A stretch of DNA of 27,730 bases from a virus. The translations under genes and the position numbers were made by a program. Positions 1,932 to 27,730 of this stretch are shown here, one piece after another. The stretch lies in the UHGV virus genome UHGV-0278671. One strand, 5' to 3'. A model generated the notes under the pieces. That model searched no databases and had not been told where the DNA came from. It saw only the letters and a list, made by a program, of their open reading frames with translations. Numbering within the stretch: position 1 is the stretch's first letter; each line of letters begins with the position of its first letter.

Positions 1932-4051
1932 CTGTCACTAGCGAGCCATGTAATAATCCCCGTGCGGGCAATGGTTTTTGCTTCATCTGTTGATAAGGTT
2001 TTCTCCCATCTCTTAAATGCCCCAGATTGCATCAGTTTCCTTTCTATTACGCGTCTCACTTCTGCTCTGTCTACTGGTGCGTTTTGCAGGCGAAATAGCA
2101 TTGATTTAAACTCAGGAGAAGACAGTAGAGCATCAGCAGCCTTTATCCTGCTTGTTTTCCCTGACATCAATGCGGACGTTATCACCCCTGTTGCACCTAC
2201 ACCAGGAAGACCAGATAAGCTTGTAACACCTTCCGCCGCAGCAGCTTTTGAGGCTATTCCATAAATTTTTGCTAGACTACCCTTTTCCTTCAGAAAGTTA
2301 TTAACTTGCTGATCCACAAGGCTGCTAGCATACTGCTTACCAGTATTGAGTCTATTCATAGCCTTGGCTGCTTGATAAATCGTATCAAGGCGCTTTGATG
2401 CATCTGTGCCAATAGCATCACGGAGAGCCTTCATATTGGCCCCATTGCGTGACATTCCGTTATACCATTTTACAAATCCATCAACCCCTAATTGCTGACC
2501 TGGTGATTTAGCATAGCTGGTAAATGCTTTATTCATTGAGGTGAGAGCAACTTCCTGCCGCATATCCTTTGGAATCGACTTCATTAATTGCCTAAAGTCG
2601 CCACCGTTTCCTTTTGCCATATTAACAACGGCACTTTCAACTTTTGGAATTGCTGATTGCTGAAGTTTTCTACCCAAGACGGTTACAGCATCATCTTCAA
2701 TGGATTTTCGTTTTTTTACCAACTCCTTACCAAGCGTCCATAACTCCCCTGCGCCATATTTTTCTGCGACAGCCTGTTGGTCATCTGTTATGGCTGCATA
2801 TAACTTTTTAAGAACACCTGTTTCTTCATCCTTGAATGGGCCAGAGCCTTTGCCAATAGCTTGCCCCACCTGCTTTCTAGCGAGATCTAAACGCCCATAC
2901 GTTGGCAAGGTGTTTGGATCAAGTCGGTTCAATGTCCGCTTCATTATTGGAGATAATTCATCAATTCCCCCTATGTCATCAGCAAAATCCTCTAAAAAAT
3001 TCAACGTATTAGTTGCCTCAATCCGGTCTCTTACCGGAACCTTTTCGGCAATTTTGTTGTAGATGTTATCTGACTGATTTTGTAATGATGAAATGGTTTT
3101 ATCAAAATTATCTGCAAGCCTGTCAGAAACCAGTTGCTTATCAAGGCTTCCCCCAAATGAAGTTATCATTTCATCAGCTTTTCTTCCTAATTCAGTAATA
3201 AAACGCTTATGCGCCTCACTAATCTCCGTTCCAGGAAGACTTGCCACTGCATTATCAAGAGCCCTGACAGCAGGATTATTAGAGATCATGCCTGGAGTGG
3301 CATAATTTTCCAGTTCTAGCTCACGGATGGCATTTATCGCGTTAAAATCAGGATTAACTTCATCGGCGAAACCTTGAATAGCTCGTTGCCCGCCAATAAA
3401 TTTATTATCCATTGCGCCAGCAGCTTTCTTTAACGTTGCTTTAGATGATTTACTACCCATCCCTACGGATGAGCGATAAATATCTCCGGCACTATTTTTA
3501 ATTTTTCCTGCAATCTTCCCAAGCGCTGGACCAACAATCTCTGCTACAGGGCCAGCCACAGCGCCAATAGCAGCGCCGGAAGCAACATCGCTATTTGTTC
3601 CATTGGCTACAATAGCCCCTTCTCCAGCACCAAGCCCTGCGGCGGCAGCCAGCCTTGCCGCCCCTTTCGGAACCTGAGAAATAATCCCACCACCACTAAC
3701 AAATGGCGCTGCTTGTCCAACGAACTCACCAACATCTTGTGCGGTTGATGGTTTTGCCGCTAACTTCTGCTGTAGAGACTGAATTGCGGCTTGCTCTTCT
3801 GGTGTCATATCCTGAAATAGACCAACACCTTTACCAACATCCATCAATCCACTGAGAACGCCATACATAAAACGGTCGAAACCGTTAGCATTATTAACAA
3901 CATTTTCCTGTCTGGAATTTTCCTCTGGTGAAACCAAAGGTGATTGCTGCTGCTCTGGTTGGGAATCAAGCACAAAACCATCAGGAAGCTGTGAGTTATC
4001 AGGCTGATTATCGAGAACAAATCCTTCGGGTAAACCTACATCGGTTGCCAT
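1928..4051 (-). CDS. Putative DNA injection/ejection protein (P22 gp16 position), 707 aa
   Basis: Last large gene of the late operon; N-terminal tandem LP(E/D)GFVLD(N/S)QP repeats and Ala/Gly-rich stretches; assignment is by position in the P22-like gene order. Confidence 0.5.
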
Positions 4052-5379
4052 TGTCCGTTCCTATAAATGAGTTTCTGACCAGTTTTAGGGTTCGTTGCCG
4101 TCGCGCCTTCTGATATCCCACTTGGCGCAGCTTTTGTCTGCCCATTACCACCTTGTGGTGTAGGCTGCGCTGTGACATCGTCAAATAGCTTGGCCTTCCT
4201 TCTCCCTAAGCTTTTTTTCAGCCCTTGAGGAATAGTATCTCCATACGTATCCAGATATTCGTCTACCTGCTGGTTAAACTGCTGCCCCATAGCGTTGGCG
4301 TTAATTTTGGCTGCGTTAACAATGTTATCCCTCGCTTCCTGTGACAAGCCATTCCCTGCATTAAGCTGGTCTACATATCCTTTTATCTGCCCCCATATGC
4401 CATCAGAGCGCATGACCTGAACCTGTTCACCTTCGCGAACAACTGACTGAGGGTCGAGAGACTTCATGTAATTAAAGATAATCCCAAGTTGGGCAGCGCC
4501 AGTATTTACCTTGCTAAGGGCTTGCAGAGAGTTTGCCGCCGCTCTGACAGAGTTATAATTTTTGCCAAAATTGGTAATGTCAGAATTTAATCCCTTAATT
4601 AAGTCTGCTGACGGCTTACCTTTTTGCCCCAGCTCCATTAGCTTCACCCCCATCTCATCTGAGTGCATTTGTGCCCGCTGAGCCCTGTCTAGTTGAGCGT
4701 TTTGGATATTTGCCCATCCTCTCACGTTCTCCATGTCAGCCTGACGGATGCTTTCATCCAATCGCCCTTTCTCTAGTTGGCGACCAACCATCTTATCCTG
4801 ATAATCCAGCATTTTATCAGGACCAACAGCCCCTAGCGTCATAGTAGTCAGCATGTGTGATAGCTGCTCTGGATTCTGGATACCTGTCTGAATCATCCAG
4901 TCAGCATTAGCACCAACGCGATTTAACCTGTCCTTGTTGTCAGTAATGAATTTACTGTAGGCTTCCGGTCCCTGAGAAAGAGCGACGTTAGCCCTCATGG
5001 CTAAATCGCCCATATCGTTGCGTTGCTGCTCATTAAGACCGGAAAACGCCTGTTGTGCCTGTGCAACAAACGCTGGATTTTCCTTGGCAAACTTAAATAG
5101 TCCCGATGGATCACCAGAAGCCCATGCATCAGCGTGAACCTTATTGAACGCACTAATCGCTTTCTGTTGCTGTTCCTGATTGTAAATATCAGCAACTCCA
5201 GCCAGACCACGTAACGCGGTCAGACCAACGTTATTTGCACCTGAGCGAGCCAACTCATTGTTTTCGCGGATCAGACCAAGCGTTGCGTTAATGTCGCTTG
5301 CCTTTGGCGCATTCTCATTTTGCGTACCGATGCCAGCCAGAAAACCACCAGAATTAATACCCTGTTGCCAAGTAGCCAT
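4036..5379 (-). CDS. Putative DNA injection/ejection protein (P22 gp20 position), 447 aa
   Basis: Follows the tail-needle gene; Gln/Asn/Ala-rich like internal ejection proteins; positional inference. Confidence 0.5.
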
Positions 5380-21051: not shown

Positions 21052-21759
21052 ATGGATTTGAACAAATTCGATGAGCCATTCAGCCCTGAAGATATCGAAT
21101 GGCGAATACAGCAAAGCGGTAAAACACGCGATGGCAAAGTGTGGGCTATGGTGCTGGCTTATGTCACGAACCGGGCAATCATGAAACGCCTGGACGATGT
21201 TTGCGGCAAAGCAGGATGGCGCAATGAATACCGCGATATTCCCAACAACGGCGGCGTTGAATGCGGCATATCAATAAAGATTGATTCCGAATGGGTAACC
21301 AAATGGGATGCTGCTGAAAACACGCAGGTAGAAGCCGTCAAAGGTGGTCGTTCCGGTGCAATGAAGCGCGCTGCCGTTCAGTGGGGAATCGGTCGGTATC
21401 TGTATAACCTTGAGGAAGGTTTCGCACAAACATCTCTCGATAAAAAGCAGGGGTGGCACAGGGCAAAACTCAAGGATGGAACAGGATTTTACTGGCTCCC
21501 TCCATCGCTGCCGGGATGGGCAATCCCAGCATCAGATAACAAACCATCACCAGAAAGTACCAACCAGAAATCTCCATCGGTTGACTGCGAGAAAATCCTG
21601 AAAGACTTCAGCGATTATGCGTCAACAGAAACTGACAAGAAAAAACTCATCGAGCGTTATCAGCGTGACTGGCAATTAATGGCTGGCAATGAGGATGCGC
21701 AGGCTAAATGCGTTCAGGTAATGAACATCAGAGTTAACGAGCTAAAACAGGCGGCATAA
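21052..21759 (+). CDS. Single-strand annealing protein: Rad52/Sak-like N-terminus fused to an Erf-like C-terminal domain
   Basis: N-terminal region resembles Rad52-family annealing proteins; C-terminus YASTETDKKKLIERYQRDWQLMAGNEDAQAKCVQVMNIRVNELKQAA matches the P22 Erf C-terminus as remembered. Confidence 0.75.
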   Translation: MDLNKFDEPFSPEDIEWRIQQSGKTRDGKVWAMVLAYVTNRAIMKRLDDVCGKAGWRNEYRDIPNNGGVECGISIKIDSEWVTKWDAAENTQVEAVKGGRSGAMKRAAVQWGIGRYLYNLEEGFAQTSLDKKQGWHRAKLKDGTGFYWLPPSLPGWAIPASDNKPSPESTNQKSPSVDCEKILKDFSDYASTETDKKKLIERYQRDWQLMAGNEDAQAKCVQVMNIRVNELKQAA

Positions 21760-22233
21760 ATGGCAAGCAGAGGCGTAAATAAGGTGATCATTATTGGTCG
21801 CCTTGGGCATGATCCAGAAATCAGATATTCACCATCAGGAACGGCATTTGCAAACCTTACAGTTGCTACGTCAGAACAATGGCGTGATAAGCAAACTGGA
21901 GAGCAAAAGGAGCAGACGGAGTGGCACCGTGTGGTAATGAGCGGGAAACTGGCAGAAATTGCCAGCGAGTATCTGCGGAAAGGCTCAGAGGTTTATCTTG
22001 AAGGCAAATTGCGGACAAGAAAATGGCAGGATCAAAGTGGACAGGATCGGTTCACTACCGAAGTTATCGTAGGCGTTGGTGGAACCATGCAAATGCTTGG
22101 TGGCAAGCAAGGAGGCAATGAACAGTCTTCACCTCAGCGAAATAACGGTCAGCAACAAAGACAGCAACCTCAGCAGCATGGAAATCACAGCGAACCACCT
22201 ATGAACTTCGACGATTCGGATATTCCGTTCTAG
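21760..22233 (+). CDS. ssb: Single-stranded DNA-binding protein
   Basis: [23 protein letters not shown]...TEWHRVV...LRTRKW... near-identical to E. coli SSB as remembered; acidic tail ending DSDIPF. Confidence 0.9.
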
Positions 22234-22242
22234 GAGCTGAAT

Positions 22243-22722
22243 ATGAAAATCTGCTCAAGATGCCATCAACAGAAGGAAGAAAGGGACTTTCAAATCAGAA
22301 GAGCATCCAGAGATGGATTAACTGCCGCTTGCCGGGCTTGCCTGGCTGAATATGACAAAGAGCGCGCGGGATTGCCACATCGAGTATCAGCAAGGAGAGA
22401 ATATCAATCATCGGAACGCGGCAGAGAACGGTGTAACGCAGCCAAAAAGCGGTTCATTCAGAGCAACCCATGGAAAAGAAAAGCCCACATCATCGTGGGT
22501 AATTTTTTGCGCGACGGTAAGCTAATCCGACCACCACAATGTGAGTGCTGCGGATCAGAATGTAAACCACAGGCGCACCACTGCGACTACAGCAAACCAA
22601 CCGATGTGATGTGGCTCTGCAAGTCATGTCATGTCGAGTGGCACAAACATAACAAACCTATCTACCCAGACGAGGAGCCAGTAACTCTCCCCTTCCCTCG
22701 TCACGCTATTCACGCAATTTAA
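22243..22722 (+). CDS. HNH-family endonuclease-like protein with N-terminal Cys cluster
   Basis: CSRCH...CRAC and C-terminal QAHHCDYSKPTDVMWLCKSCHVEWH fit a zinc-bound HNH motif. Confidence 0.55.
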   Translation: MKICSRCHQQKEERDFQIRRASRDGLTAACRACLAEYDKERAGLPHRVSARREYQSSERGRERCNAAKKRFIQSNPWKRKAHIIVGNFLRDGKLIRPPQCECCGSECKPQAHHCDYSKPTDVMWLCKSCHVEWHKHNKPIYPDEEPVTLPFPRHAIHAI

Positions 22723-22730
22723 GGACTTAC

Positions 22731-23279
22731 ATGAATCACTTGATGGTTGACCTTGAAACAATGGGCAACGGGCCATACGCGCCAGTTATTTCTATTGGGG
22801 CGGTATTCTTTGACCCGAATACCGGAGAAACAGGAGAAGAGTTCTCGGTAAATATCTCGCTTGAGTCATCAATGCGATATCGGGCGCGTCCTGACGCTTC
22901 AACGATTTTATGGTGGCTGGAACAGAGTGAAGAAGCCAGAAAATCGCTAACCAGCAACATTCAGGAGCTTTCAACGGCTCTTTCATGGTTATCTGAATTC
23001 ATCATAAAGAACGCTAACCACAAATTCGTTCAGGTTTGGGGGAATGGAGCATCATTTGACTGCGTTATTCTCCGAAACAGTTATTCGCTGACAGGGCAGC
23101 CAGTTCCATGGCAGTGGTGGAATGACCGCGACGTAAGAACAATCGTCGAGCTTGGAAAGGTAATAGGATTCGACCCTAAGCGAGATATGCCATTCAAAGG
23201 AACTCGCCACAACGCTCTTGATGATGCCATTCACCAAGCCAAATACGTTTCAGCGATCTGGAAAAAGTTAGCTAAATAA
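22731..23279 (+). CDS. DnaQ-like 3'-5' exonuclease
   Basis: DEDDh-type motifs: MVDLET (Exo I), FDCVILRN (Exo II-like), HNALDDA (Exo III). Confidence 0.65.
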   Translation: MNHLMVDLETMGNGPYAPVISIGAVFFDPNTGETGEEFSVNISLESSMRYRARPDASTILWWLEQSEEARKSLTSNIQELSTALSWLSEFIIKNANHKFVQVWGNGASFDCVILRNSYSLTGQPVPWQWWNDRDVRTIVELGKVIGFDPKRDMPFKGTRHNALDDAIHQAKYVSAIWKKLAK

Positions 23280-23295
23280 TCAACAGGAGAAAACC

Positions 23296-23589
23296 ATGCC
23301 AGCGCCTCTGTATGGTGCGGATGACGCGCGCCGCTGTTCCGGCAATTCCGTATCGGAGGTGCTGGATAAATTCAGAAAAAACTACGATCGGATAATGTCG
23401 CTACCGCAGGAAACGAAAGAGGAAAAGGAATTTCGCCACTGTATATGGCTTGCAGAGAAAGAAGAACGCGAGCGAATTTACCAGACATCAATCCGACCAT
23501 TCCGCAAAGCCACATATACCCACTTCCCTGAAATTGACCCGCGCCTGCGTAATTACCGCTCACGCTATGGTGCTATCAGTAATGACTGA
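23296..23589 (+). CDS. Hypothetical protein (97 aa)
   Basis: AGGAG before the ATG; no recognised motifs. Confidence 0.45.
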
Positions 23590-23599
23590 GGAATTTACC

Positions 23600-23767
23600 A
23601 TGAGAGGACTTGCATACAATCCCGGCATTCTTCCGGCAGAAATGATTATTCGCCAACGCGTAAAGCCAATGCCATCGAGAGAGGAATTGCTTAAGAGAAA
23701 TAGTTTCGGTTCTGTTAATGACAACAAATATCTGAATGCAATGTGGCGCAAAGGAGGCAAGCAGTGA
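23600..23767 (+). CDS. Small hypothetical protein (55 aa)
   Basis: GAGGA 8 nt before ATG 23600; stop overlaps the next gene's GTG start. Confidence 0.3.
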
Positions 23768-24354
23768 GCAACATCGACAAACAGGCGCAGCGTAAAGCAA
23801 AGGTAATCACAAAGGAATTTGTTGAGGAACACCTTCACTACGATGGGAAGGATTTTTTCTGGAAGAAGCGCGAACCAAGTTCGTTTTCTGACAGCCGCAC
23901 ATGCAAGGTTTGGAATACTCGAATTGCAGGGAAGCGGGCCGGAGGAATCAGCGCTCAAGGTTATGTAGAAATTCAAATCAAAGGGAGTCGATATAAGGCT
24001 CATAGATTAGCGTGGTGTCTTGTTCATGGCGATATACCAACAGACATGCAGGTTGATCACATTAACCACGACCGAACTGATAACCGAATAGAGAATCTGC
24101 GCCTTGTTGATAATCAGGGAAACCAAAAGAACTCTTCGATACGAAAGGACAACATTGGAGGCTGCACAGGTGTTACCTGGAATCCTAGCCATAAAAGATG
24201 GATTGCCTACATACGCGAAAATGGTAAGCACAAGCACATTGGTAGCTTCATTAAATTCTCTGATGCTGTAAGAGCAAGAGAGGAAGCTCAGGCAAGGCTT
24301 GGATTCCACATGAATCACGGCGCCGCTGGCATTCGCATCAAAGGAGGTGAGTAA
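23764..24354 (+). CDS. HNH homing-endonuclease-like protein with C-terminal AP2-type DNA-binding domain
   Basis: [36 protein letters not shown] (HNH motif); C-terminal [27 protein letters not shown] (AP2-like); AAGGAGG 6 nt before GTG 23764. Confidence 0.65.
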
Positions 24355-24719: not shown

Positions 24720-24938
24720 GTGCCAACATTATTCAGAAAAGAATATCCGCGAAGAAGTCGAATAACAGAACTCCTGTTTATCATTCTGTTTATCGTGTTG
24801 ATGATACCGATAAACCTGCTGTTTCTGGTTTGGATAATCGGAAAAATATTTGAGCCGATTGTTGAATTGTATATCGATATGACATGGGAACCATTCAGGG
24901 CGCTACACAATAAAATTAATCCGTATAAGGAAAGCTGA
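24720..24938 (+). CDS. Small single-pass membrane protein (72 aa)
   Basis: GTG start with AAGGAGAG upstream; hydrophobic helix LLFIILFIVLMIPINLLFLVWIIG. Confidence 0.35.
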   Translation: MPTLFRKEYPRRSRITELLFIILFIVLMIPINLLFLVWIIGKIFEPIVELYIDMTWEPFRALHNKINPYKES

Positions 24939-26379: not shown

Positions 26380-26571
26380 ATGACCGATACCAGCCTGATT
26401 CCTGAGAAAGAAGTGATGAACAAGCTCGGTGTTTCATCACGTCAGACAATCTGGAACTATACCAAACGGCACGGATTTCCGAAGCCAGTCAGAACCCACC
26501 CCAAATCATACCTTCGTGAAGCTGTTGAGGGGTGGATTCTTAACGGTGGCGTTAATCAGAAATGCTCCTGA
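26380..26571 (+). CDS. alpA: AlpA-family regulator/excisionase
   Basis: 63 aa with HTH KEVMNKLGVSSRQTIWNYTKRHGFPKP typical of the AlpA/Xis family; GGAG before the ATG. Confidence 0.65.
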   Translation: MTDTSLIPEKEVMNKLGVSSRQTIWNYTKRHGFPKPVRTHPKSYLREAVEGWILNGGVNQKCS

Positions 26572-27730
26572 TGTGCCAGAACAATTTATCAGCGTGAAGC
26601 TCATACGCTTTGCGCTGAGCCTCTATCCAGTCGTGTTTATTGTATACGGACATTATCCCGCCAAGTTCATGACCGAGCATTCGCTCAGTAACATGAGGCT
26701 CGACATTCATCTCGGACAGACGTGTAACAAGCGTTCTTCTGAAATCGTGTGTTCGCCAGTAACCTAGATCCATCCCTCCCCTTATTCTATTTACGAATCG
26801 GTTGGCTGCAGCGATGCTGATCGGTTTGTTTATGTCTTCTCCAGGGAAAAGAACATCATTGTACGTTGTCATGGCCTTTTCGAGGAAAGGCTTAATTTGT
26901 TCGAAGATTGGACGGCGGATAACATTACCCATCTTGCTATGCTCTTTCGGTACGGTCCATACGTTTTCCAGCAGGTCAAATTCTGTCTTTTTTGCCAGCC
27001 TAAGCTCTGAGAGCCTCGCCCCCCACAGCATAAGCATCTGATGAAGTAGCTTATTTGACGTAGACGCACGGCTTCTTTCAATAGCAAGCCAAATCTTAGC
27101 CAGTTCGTGATACGACAGTACCCGATCCCCTACCTCAGCGCGGGAGCCGAAGTCCCTTGGTTGGATGCTCATAATTGCGCAACTATCTATCAACTGACGC
27201 CGCATGCACCAACTTATTGCTGATCTTAGTTGACTTAGCACCTGCCTTGCTCGGCGTGGATTATCTTTTTCTTCTTCGGTAAGCAGGTCAACCCATTGCT
27301 TAACCGTGATAGAAGATGCCGGACGATTAGGAAAGGCGTCATGCATGCGCTTCATAACCGTTGATCGGTAAAGTGCCTGGGTCTTTTCTCTGAGAGTTGT
27401 AGAGACGTAGTTGTCGAACCAGTAGTCGAGACACTGGGCGACCGTCATGGAGTTCTCCACCTTCTCTTCAAAATAAGTGCGTGGATCCGTTCCTGAGAAA
27501 TAGAGCTTTCGCAAGTCAGCAGTGATCTGTCTGGCATCCTTCAAAGACAGGGATGGGTATCGACCAAGCCCAAGTCGATTAGGCTTGCCATGCCAGCGAT
27601 AGCGGTACTGGAACTGGATGACCCCCTTCGGTGAAATTCGTACGCTGAGGCCATCGGCATCAGCCACTTCTTGTGGGCCCGAATATGGTTTACCATAAAT
27701 AGTACGCAGTTTTGTGTCGCTTATAGCCAT
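26552..27730 (-). CDS. int: Tyrosine-type site-specific integrase (P4-like arm-binding N-terminus)
   Basis: 392 aa; N-terminal LRTIYGKPYSGPQEVADADGLSVRISPKGVIQFQYRYRWHGK; C-terminal catalytic residues in HDFRRT...LGHE...YNKHDW; start codon is the last three bases of the window. Confidence 0.9.
   Translation of the reverse strand: MAISDTKLRTIYGKPYSGPQEVADADGLSVRISPKGVIQFQYRYRWHGKPNRLGLGRYPSLSLKDARQITADLRKLYFSGTDPRTYFEEKVENSMTVAQCLDYWFDNYVSTTLREKTQALYRSTVMKRMHDAFPNRPASSITVKQWVDLLTEEEKDNPRRARQVLSQLRSAISWCMRRQLIDSCAIMSIQPRDFGSRAEVGDRVLSYHELAKIWLAIERSRASTSNKLLHQMLMLWGARLSELRLAKKTEFDLLENVWTVPKEHSKMGNVIRRPIFEQIKPFLEKAMTTYNDVLFPGEDINKPISIAAANRFVNRIRGGMDLGYWRTHDFRRTLVTRLSEMNVEPHVTERMLGHELGGIMSVYNKHDWIEAQRKAYELHADKLFWHIRSISD

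Follow-up and report, generated by a model that had tools for sequence, protein, structure and literature searches.

The virus genome UHGV-0278671, a stretch of 27,730 nucleotides (nt) that was analyzed here as a whole and is hereinafter called the window, derives from an Sf6/P22-like phage and encompasses, in its early-left operon, two nuclease-like genes, which we denote gene A (22243..22722) and gene B (23764..24354). [quoted passage not shown] The sharper insertion signature is that of gene A, which is located inside the 3' end of ssb, not that of gene B. This signature, as well as the inclusion in the gene A family of the intron-encoded I-KsaII, was overlooked in an earlier note on this DNA. 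Both open reading frames (ORFs) reported in that note are present on the plus strand, and their assignment to the early-left operon is right, given that the region is syntenic with its counterparts in Sf6 and ES18; the early-left operons of these two phages and those of Bas106, mEp235 and epsilon34 have a similar gene order and much DNA in common with the window.

Gene A within the 3' end of ssb

The features that bear on the position of gene A are the following (aa, amino acids):

21760..22233, plus strand: ssb, encoding SSB of 157 aa (Pfam SSB, 1.7e-38)
22207..22233, plus strand: left end of the gene A cassette, made up of the nine terminal ssb codons, diverged from the gene-A-less allele (DNA alignment, table of SSB tips)
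22243..22722, plus strand: gene A, nuclease-like, 159 aa, ATG start
22678..22722, plus strand: right-hand junction of the cassette, comprising the final 45 nt of gene A, encoding PVTLPFPRHAIHAI up to the stop codon, disordered in the structural model; the ssb 3' end in gene-A-less prophages

In the gene-A-less relatives of the window, ssb continues beyond the codons for ...PPMDFDDDIPF into APVTLPFPRHAIHAI before the stop codon, and gene A terminates with the 45 nt that encode this peptide. The SSB encoded in the window has a non-canonical tip and lacks the 15-residue extension that follows IPF in the SSB of these relatives, and the last 14 codons of gene A correspond to that extension. The extension-encoding 45 nt occupy positions 22678-22722 of the window, 3383-3427 of locus L003 and 1632-1676 of locus L014, and the extension is also found in loci L111-L114. 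The window and the gene-A-less locus L014 share the same ssb backbone and the same downstream exonuclease gene: they are 98% identical up to CCACCTATG, differ in the last nine ssb codons and rejoin at 22677-22678. A second ssb backbone likewise comes in both states (L003 and L004 versus L016-L018). In the two backbones, the gene-A-plus allele terminates with ...MNFDD(S/E)(D)IPF, whereas the gene-A-minus allele reads ...MDFDDDIPF followed by APVTLPFPRHAIHAI and the stop codon. Thus, gene A shows a presence/absence polymorphism at one fixed site, and the site is altered in the allele that carries it, with the IPF codon split from the extension and nine codons changed, which is a correlation only.

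Among 5426 complete E. coli genomes, the set behind all genome counts given here, gene A is present, 95-100% conserved, in 98, and the uninterrupted ssb-extension junction is found instead in 299. The association with the SSB tip (...D[IL]PF) extends to viral contigs, where the tip ends no more than 150 nt upstream of gene A in 77 of the 78 cases; the canonical terminal ...MDFDDDIPF is seen in none of these 77 tips, and in nearly all of them a residue preceding (D)IPF is altered or added.

The simplest reading of these alignments is that a cassette consisting of the altered tip, a stop codon, a ribosome-binding site and the nuclease core entered in frame between the IPF codon of ssb and the conserved extension, so that SSB was shortened and the nuclease came to end in the former SSB tail. 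In gene-A-less phages, gene A would recognize the ssb-extension junction in its intact form and home there, with the cut falling near GATATACCCTTTGCGCCAGTAACT, and the insertion together with the altered tip would render its own genome immune. The layout is that of a classic homing site, which is split by the element and has one half-site changed in the carrier. A more specific proposal, which we offer tentatively and do not consider the likelier outcome, is that genes of the Sf6 gp26 type (the gene A protein is identical to Sf6 gp26 at 100%) are free-standing homing endonucleases for phage ssb 3' ends whose insertion point is precisely the boundary of the IPF codon with the 15-residue extension, moving this peptide from SSB to the nuclease tail.

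Which state of the site is the older one? The extension conforms to the pattern AP[IV][GT]L[PQ][FY][GP]R[HN]xI[HY]x[IL], with the stop codon immediately following, and is present not only in SSBs of E. coli prophages (the 299 genomes mentioned above) and of epsilon34, g341c, HK75 and mEp235 but also, encoded by different codons, in those of Vibrio phage V039C, Providencia PSTNGR2lys, Cronobacter JK004, Salmonella PVP-SE1 (gp39) and two metagenomic phages. Because the same peptide is encoded by different codons in SSBs of distant phages that lack the gene A tail, the extension appears to pre-date the insertion of gene A. This conservation also makes the simple deletion of gene A the less likely direction for the origin of the gene-A-less alleles; furthermore, deletion between the terminal AGGAGC repeats would give TTC TAG GAG CCA, whereas the junction actually observed is TTT GCG CCA. 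Literature searches yielded no description of this post-IPF extension of SSB. In E. coli SSB, the free C-terminal Phe is recognized by partner proteins, and the extension would bury this normally free residue.

Two further observations concern the annotation and the fate of gene A. The gene is missing from the RefSeq (PGAP) annotation in all 14 places checked, namely, the 12 sampled rows and loci L006 and L015, where an intact ORF identical to that of the window is present at 3144-3623 and 2142-2621, respectively. Rare chimeric ORFs combine SSB with a C-terminal portion of gene A, or an N-terminal portion of gene A with the exonuclease or a helix-turn-helix (HTH) protein (P0011, P0014, P0024, P0053 and P0057); in one of these chimeras, the joint is a short shared peptide (IVG), and the chimeras look like deletion products of decaying prophages.

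The family of gene A

The assignment of 22243..22722 to zinc-finger HNH proteins in the earlier note holds up, with a zinc ribbon combined with a probable HNH-like domain. The key feature is the following:

22528..22650, plus strand: predicted His-Me finger of gene A, including C100, C103, H112, H113, D121, C126, C129, H130 and H134 (conserved columns, structural model)

In an alignment of 35 homologs, the N-terminal CxxC...CxxC ribbon is nearly invariant, and the C-terminal motif takes the form C100xxC103...H112 H113...C126xxC129 H130...H134; the invariant residues are C100, C103, H112, H113, D115, Y116, P119, W124, L125, H130, W133 and H134, and C126 and C129 are at least 90% conserved. The structural model (AlphaFold2, pLDDT 91.8) contains an apparent beta-beta-alpha unit at residues 110-136, with strands at 110-113 and 122-125 and a helix at 127-136, and has residues 147-159 disordered; the Zn ribbon covers aa 1-35 of the protein and the helical bundle aa 31-90, and a putative beta-beta-alpha-Me unit spans aa 96-136. 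The signature of the His-Me finger, that is, a catalytic His ending strand 1, a metal-ligand His or Asn in the helix and a CxxC...CxxC zinc site, is in place, the catalytic roles being putative. PHROG 2340 ('endonuclease') matches residues 1-143 with an E-value of 2.6e-47. We conclude that gene A probably encodes an HNH (His-Me finger) nuclease.

This protein is a Pfam orphan. Neither Pfam nor NCBIfam nor PADLOC has any match to gene A, and just 2 of the 35 family members reach an E-value of 0.68 on the HNH profile PF01844. Comparison of the nuclease domain using hhalign with HK97 gp74 and with the alignment of the gene B family and HNH_3 gave no match. Sequence searches of the PDB with both proteins, with the gene A family profile and with the profile of its C-terminal domain returned nothing significant, the best hit being the T5 SciA nickase (E-value 0.29), for which no description turned up in literature searches.

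A profile search does retrieve more than 1100 relatives of gene A, nearly all without Pfam domains. The decisive family link is I-KsaII of Staphylococcus phage K/A5W, a full-length homolog (35% identity, E-value 2e-29) that, on sequence comparison, places gene A in a family with an intron-encoded member. The two proteins have a Zn ribbon, a helical region and a CxxC...HH...CxxCH...H motif in common, and both are missed by the Pfam HNH models; I-KsaII resides inside polA and is annotated as intron-encoded, whereas gene A is free-standing at the ssb 3' end and has an SSB-derived tail. The literature searched contains no biochemical characterization of either protein. In lytic phages, members of the family are found in contexts other than behind ssb.

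A possible role in the recombination module

A quite different explanation of the same position, to which we assign a rather low probability, is that gene A is a working nuclease of the recombination module, structure-specific or nicking and associated with SSB, that serves the Rad52-like annealing protein by processing DNA ends or branched intermediates, with its SSB-like tail docking to the partner of the extension. Gene A is tightly packed between ssb and exo/abc2, its homologs with 40-49% identity recurrently adjoin ERF-SSB or Rad52-like-SSB pairs in other temperate phages, and the tail peptide is retained, with conservative changes, in homologs down to about 78% identity. Moreover, in a recent survey of lambdoid Rec modules, HNH nucleases make up one of four nuclease types, the ES18 class (PMC12315714). 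However, the module works without gene A in most relatives, as in the 299 genomes that have ssb with the extension and no gene A; a DEDDh exonuclease and Abc2 are already encoded in the window; the gene A family includes an intron-encoded protein and, in lytic phages, is found in unrelated contexts; and the same slot in ES18 is taken by an unrelated HNH_3 gene. The same survey also points out that the mobility of HNH genes makes position a poor guide to role (PMC12315714).

Around ssb there seems to be a hot spot in which at least two families of HNH genes are represented. Unrelated HNH_3 genes are located after ssb in ES18 (gp47; L110 2714-3235), between the annealing-protein gene and ssb in L017 (3060-3527) and before ERF in L022 (2442-2909). 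Such occupancy of the same or adjacent slots fits the clustering around conserved genes that is expected of homing genes (PMC10448857). ES18 gp47 resembles gene A in occupying the slot between ssb and abc2 in a P22-like/lambdoid early-left operon and in being preceded by an altered ssb tip (terminal MNFDDEIPF); however, it consists of HNH_3 and zf-His_Me_endon domains and has no detectable similarity to gene A, so that the candidate membership of the ES18 Rec-module HNH protein in the gene A family was rejected.

A parallel for homing next to a gene whose product binds single-stranded DNA exists in T4, where SegG is a free-standing homing endonuclease encoded beside gene 32, the T4 SSB gene. 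SegG cuts the neighbor gene of phages that lack SegG, and flanking markers are co-converted. [quoted passage not shown] SegG is a GIY-YIG enzyme, not an HNH enzyme, and T4 gp32 is unrelated to the bacterial-type SSB.

Gene B: an HNH-AP2 protein in the ea region

The relevant features of gene B are as follows:

23747..23793, plus strand: left junction of gene B, with the AAAGGAGG Shine-Dalgarno sequence, the GTGA overlap and the first ~10 codons (blastn breakpoints, junction listing)
23764..24354, plus strand: gene B, HNH_3 plus AP2-fold protein, 196 aa, GTG start
23992..24126, plus strand: HNH_3 core, aa 77-121 (Pfam, alignment)
24160..24303, plus strand: AP2-fold domain, with three strands (aa 137-162) and a helix (aa 165-179) (structural model)
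24316..24354, plus strand: right junction, formed by the final 35-39 nt of gene B and including the Shine-Dalgarno sequence of the next gene (matches in phages and prophages)

The likely start codon, the GTG at 23764, overlaps the stop codon of the DUF2737 gene as GTGA and has AAAGGAGG 7 nt upstream; the RefSeq relatives are annotated with the same start and labeled 'HNH endonuclease'. The earlier note described this gene as a combination of an HNH motif with a C-terminal AP2-like domain, and this description stands. The match to Pfam HNH_3 (4e-18) is above the curated cut-off, PHROG 99 ('HNH endonuclease') is matched at 1.7e-63, and the 'homing endonuclease' models of PADLOC match as well. 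Seven residues, H80, D98, H99, N107, N111, L112 and N123, the last one located just past the Pfam match, are invariant in 39 homologs. The domain search proposed in that note succeeded for HNH_3 but fell short for AP2, which scored 21.2 bits (3.6e-4) against the curated threshold of 33.3 and covered profile positions 4-27 of 54 only; PF00847 (AP2) is recorded for several members of the gene B family. In the structural model, an I-HmuI-like part precedes what is predicted to be an AP2/ERF fold, a three-stranded sheet on a helix. A protein with HNH followed by AP2 belongs to a recognized family of homing endonucleases (PMC10448857, citing Magnani et al. 2004).

I-HmuI itself (PDB 1U3E), from Bacillus phage SPO1, is an intron-encoded HNH nicking homing endonuclease. 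Gene B, in contrast, is free-standing, its C-terminal module has the predicted AP2 fold, and the identity to I-HmuI is about 20%. The C-terminal DNA-binding part of I-HmuI consists of helical/HTH modules. The HNH-AP2 family represented by the 'IPA-HNH' genes of Vibrio phage ICP1 (PMC10448857) resembles gene B in the N-terminal HNH domain, the C-terminal AP2 domain, the free-standing organization and the sporadic distribution. However, gene B matches the canonical Pfam HNH_3, which the ICP1 proteins do not, and resides in a temperate lambdoid phage, within its accessory 'ea' region, whereas the ICP1 genes lie beside essential genes of a lytic phage.

Gene B is present in 17 of the E. coli genomes, at 98-99.8% identity, and its DNA, save for the last 35-39 nt, is found in none of the 50,697 records of the phage collection that was searched. 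The prophages that carry it possess recombination modules of the RecT/Gp157, Erf, Rad52-like or ATPase type. Its left neighbor is of at least four kinds (DUF2737, one of three hypothetical genes, or another HNH_3 gene), and its right neighbor, represented by at least seven different genes, changes almost every time. In blastn comparisons, the homology to the window starts at 23747-23752 where the left neighbor differs and stops at 24350 in all loci but one. Homologs with 50-84% identity occupy accessory regions of unrelated kinds, among them one that is nin-like and follows lambda-P-type replication genes. Both the sporadic spread and the breakpoints at the edges of the gene itself are as expected of a homing gene, and the presence in so few genomes, with changing neighbors, fits a mobile or selfish gene. 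Nevertheless, the selfish insertion envisaged in the earlier note is borne out only in part. An empty site was not found among the best 60 of the 2080 flank-sharing records that a search of the 5426 genomes with the flanks alone yielded, where the slot is always filled by another gene (Ea22-like, DUF5405, DUF7739 or others) or a pseudogene; synteny comparison with relatives, which that note had suggested, accordingly delimits the breakpoints but reveals no relative with directly adjoining flanks.

In two copies, in L003 and L012, gene B is frameshifted at the 5' end. In locus L008, a second, different HNH_3 gene (3558-4004), which ends with ...QLRKGGNQ, is located directly upstream of gene B (4001-4591) and overlaps it by 4 nt, forming a tandem of nucleases.

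Junctions of the ea region

The earlier note took the overlap of gene B with the stop and start codons of its neighbors for a mark of insertion. The overlaps are real, but three consecutive junctions in the window overlap in the same manner (23767/23764, 24354/24354 and 24530/24527), and this is a standard, conserved junction of the ea region. Because such overlap is the norm in this region, it is not evidence of insertion, and we reject it as a mark thereof.

The left junction of gene B is common to Ea22-like genes and recurs at other junctions between ea genes; in the Sf6 record, the equivalent site is labeled 'bsq3 boundary sequence'. The right junction of gene B recurs as the 3' end of ead/Ea22-like genes, both in Stx phages and phiV10 and in many prophages. 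In general, unrelated upstream genes, including the second HNH gene of L008, end with (Q)(L/I)RKGG(N/K)Q and overlap the next start as GTGA, the next gene starts with VS(K/N)ID(Y/K)QA, and Ea22-like genes end with AAGI(R/G)(I/V)KGE. The protein ends encoded by these modules are disordered, and the modules also contain the next gene's ribosome-binding site. Ea22-like genes found elsewhere in the slot of gene B share its first ~30 and last ~31-39 nt; they start with VSKIDYQALRE or MSNIDKQALRE and end with AAGIRIKGE. The HNH-AP2 core of gene B (about 23794-24319) sits within the conserved shell of an Ea22-like gene.

The same pattern has been noted before in the EaE::HNH fusions of epsilon34 and g341c (PMC2629481). 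Like gene B, in which the two ends of an Ea22-like gene, its first and last codons, have been retained, the in-frame fusions epsilon34 gene 31 and g341c gene 26 of P22-like phages have homing-type HNH genes within remnants of ea genes; unlike gene B, they involve another ea shell and another HNH lineage, one similar to endonucleases of Lactobacillus phages (PMC2629481).

These junctions bring up another explanation, under which both genes are passengers of lambdoid mosaicism, with the boundary sequences serving as homology arms for phage or host recombinases and with a nuclease activity that is directed at competing phages or host DNA, or is absent altogether. We take this to be a minority possibility. 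The same junction peptides (...RKGGNQ, VS(K/N)ID... and ...AAGIRIKGE) are found on unrelated ea genes that do not encode nucleases, the Sf6 record annotates these junctions as boundary sequences, and all neighbors in the ea region vary among prophages. On the other side of the balance, HNH genes of at least two families are found at these boundaries far above chance (gene A, gene B, the L008 tandem, L017, L022 and ES18 gp47), the EaE::HNH fusion of epsilon34 gene 31 is likewise located at such a boundary (PMC2629481), and the gene A cassette brings along an altered ssb tip, for which simple recombination at junctions has no need.

That one or both genes are decaying, inactive relics seems very improbable. 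Copies of gene B are frameshifted or truncated in L003 and L012, and chimeric SSB::geneA and geneA::exo ORFs do occur; however, both ORFs in the window are full length and keep all invariant catalytic and zinc residues, and gene A is not only highly conserved in the 98 genomes but also identical in Sf6, a functional phage.

Proposed homing by both genes

Under the favored interpretation of two homing-type cassettes, gene B would nick or cut related phages devoid of it at a specific site and would be copied in during recombinational repair, its coding core lying between the conserved 5' and 3' junctions of an Ea22-like gene; gene A would act at the ssb-extension junction as outlined above. Several considerations weigh against this interpretation. 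Many of the gene-A-plus loci are close relatives, so that the correlation with the SSB tip is backed by ~10 independent lineages. The constant location of gene A after ssb, in combination with different annealing proteins, is equally expected of a functional nuclease of the recombination module, and the survey of Rec modules argues for a functional role of the HNH genes packed into them (PMC12315714). As for gene B, given that all ea genes shuffle at the same conserved junctions and that the slot is never empty, ordinary homologous recombination at these junctions may suffice to explain its spread, with no role of the nuclease. It should be stressed that homing and participation in the recombination module are not mutually exclusive for gene A.

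Genomic setting

The remaining features around the two genes are the following:

21052-21759, plus strand: gene for a Rad52-like annealing protein (ORF, profile matches)
22731..23279, plus strand: DEDDh 3'-5' exonuclease (Rv2179c-like), belonging to the recombination module as a variable component (Pfam, 1e-72)
23296-23589, plus strand: Abc2 gene
23600..23767, plus strand: DUF2737 gene, the usual left neighbor of gene B, ending with ...WRKGGKQ inside the conserved junction

The DEDDh exonuclease gene is missing from Sf6, where abc2 comes straight after gp26. Downstream of gene B, on the plus strand of the window, follow several small 'ea' genes, a gene for a DUF551 protein and an excisionase-like ORF. 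The apparent gap of 221 nt after 24718 probably contains a 72-residue gene (24720-24938, plus strand) with a GTG start and AAAGGAGAG upstream, and the hydrophobic stretch ELLFIILFIVLMIPINLLFLVWIIG in its product suggests a small membrane protein. After the excisionase-like ORF, a 392-residue ORF (26552-27730) lies on the opposite, minus strand; the equivalent position of L007, likewise on the opposite strand, carries a tyrosine recombinase annotation, in contrast to the Sf6 integrase, which is on the same strand.

Implications

Both genes are of already known kinds, their sequences are in public records, and HNH genes of the homing type are common in phages. The value of the present observations is moderate and of interest to specialists; it lies in the insertion signature at the end of ssb, the conserved extension of SSB and the gap in the RefSeq annotation of gene A. 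If the proposed scenario for gene A is correct, a single mobile element would remodel the interaction end of SSB and possibly recruit itself to the partner of SSB. The contribution of nucleases to the formation of mosaic boundaries has so far been supported mainly in lytic phages (PMC10448857). The ssb gene followed by gp26 and the ssb gene with the intact extension constitute a natural allele pair in the lambdoid phages that infect E. coli and Shigella, and with this pair the idea that mosaic boundaries are created by nucleases could be put to the test in temperate phages.

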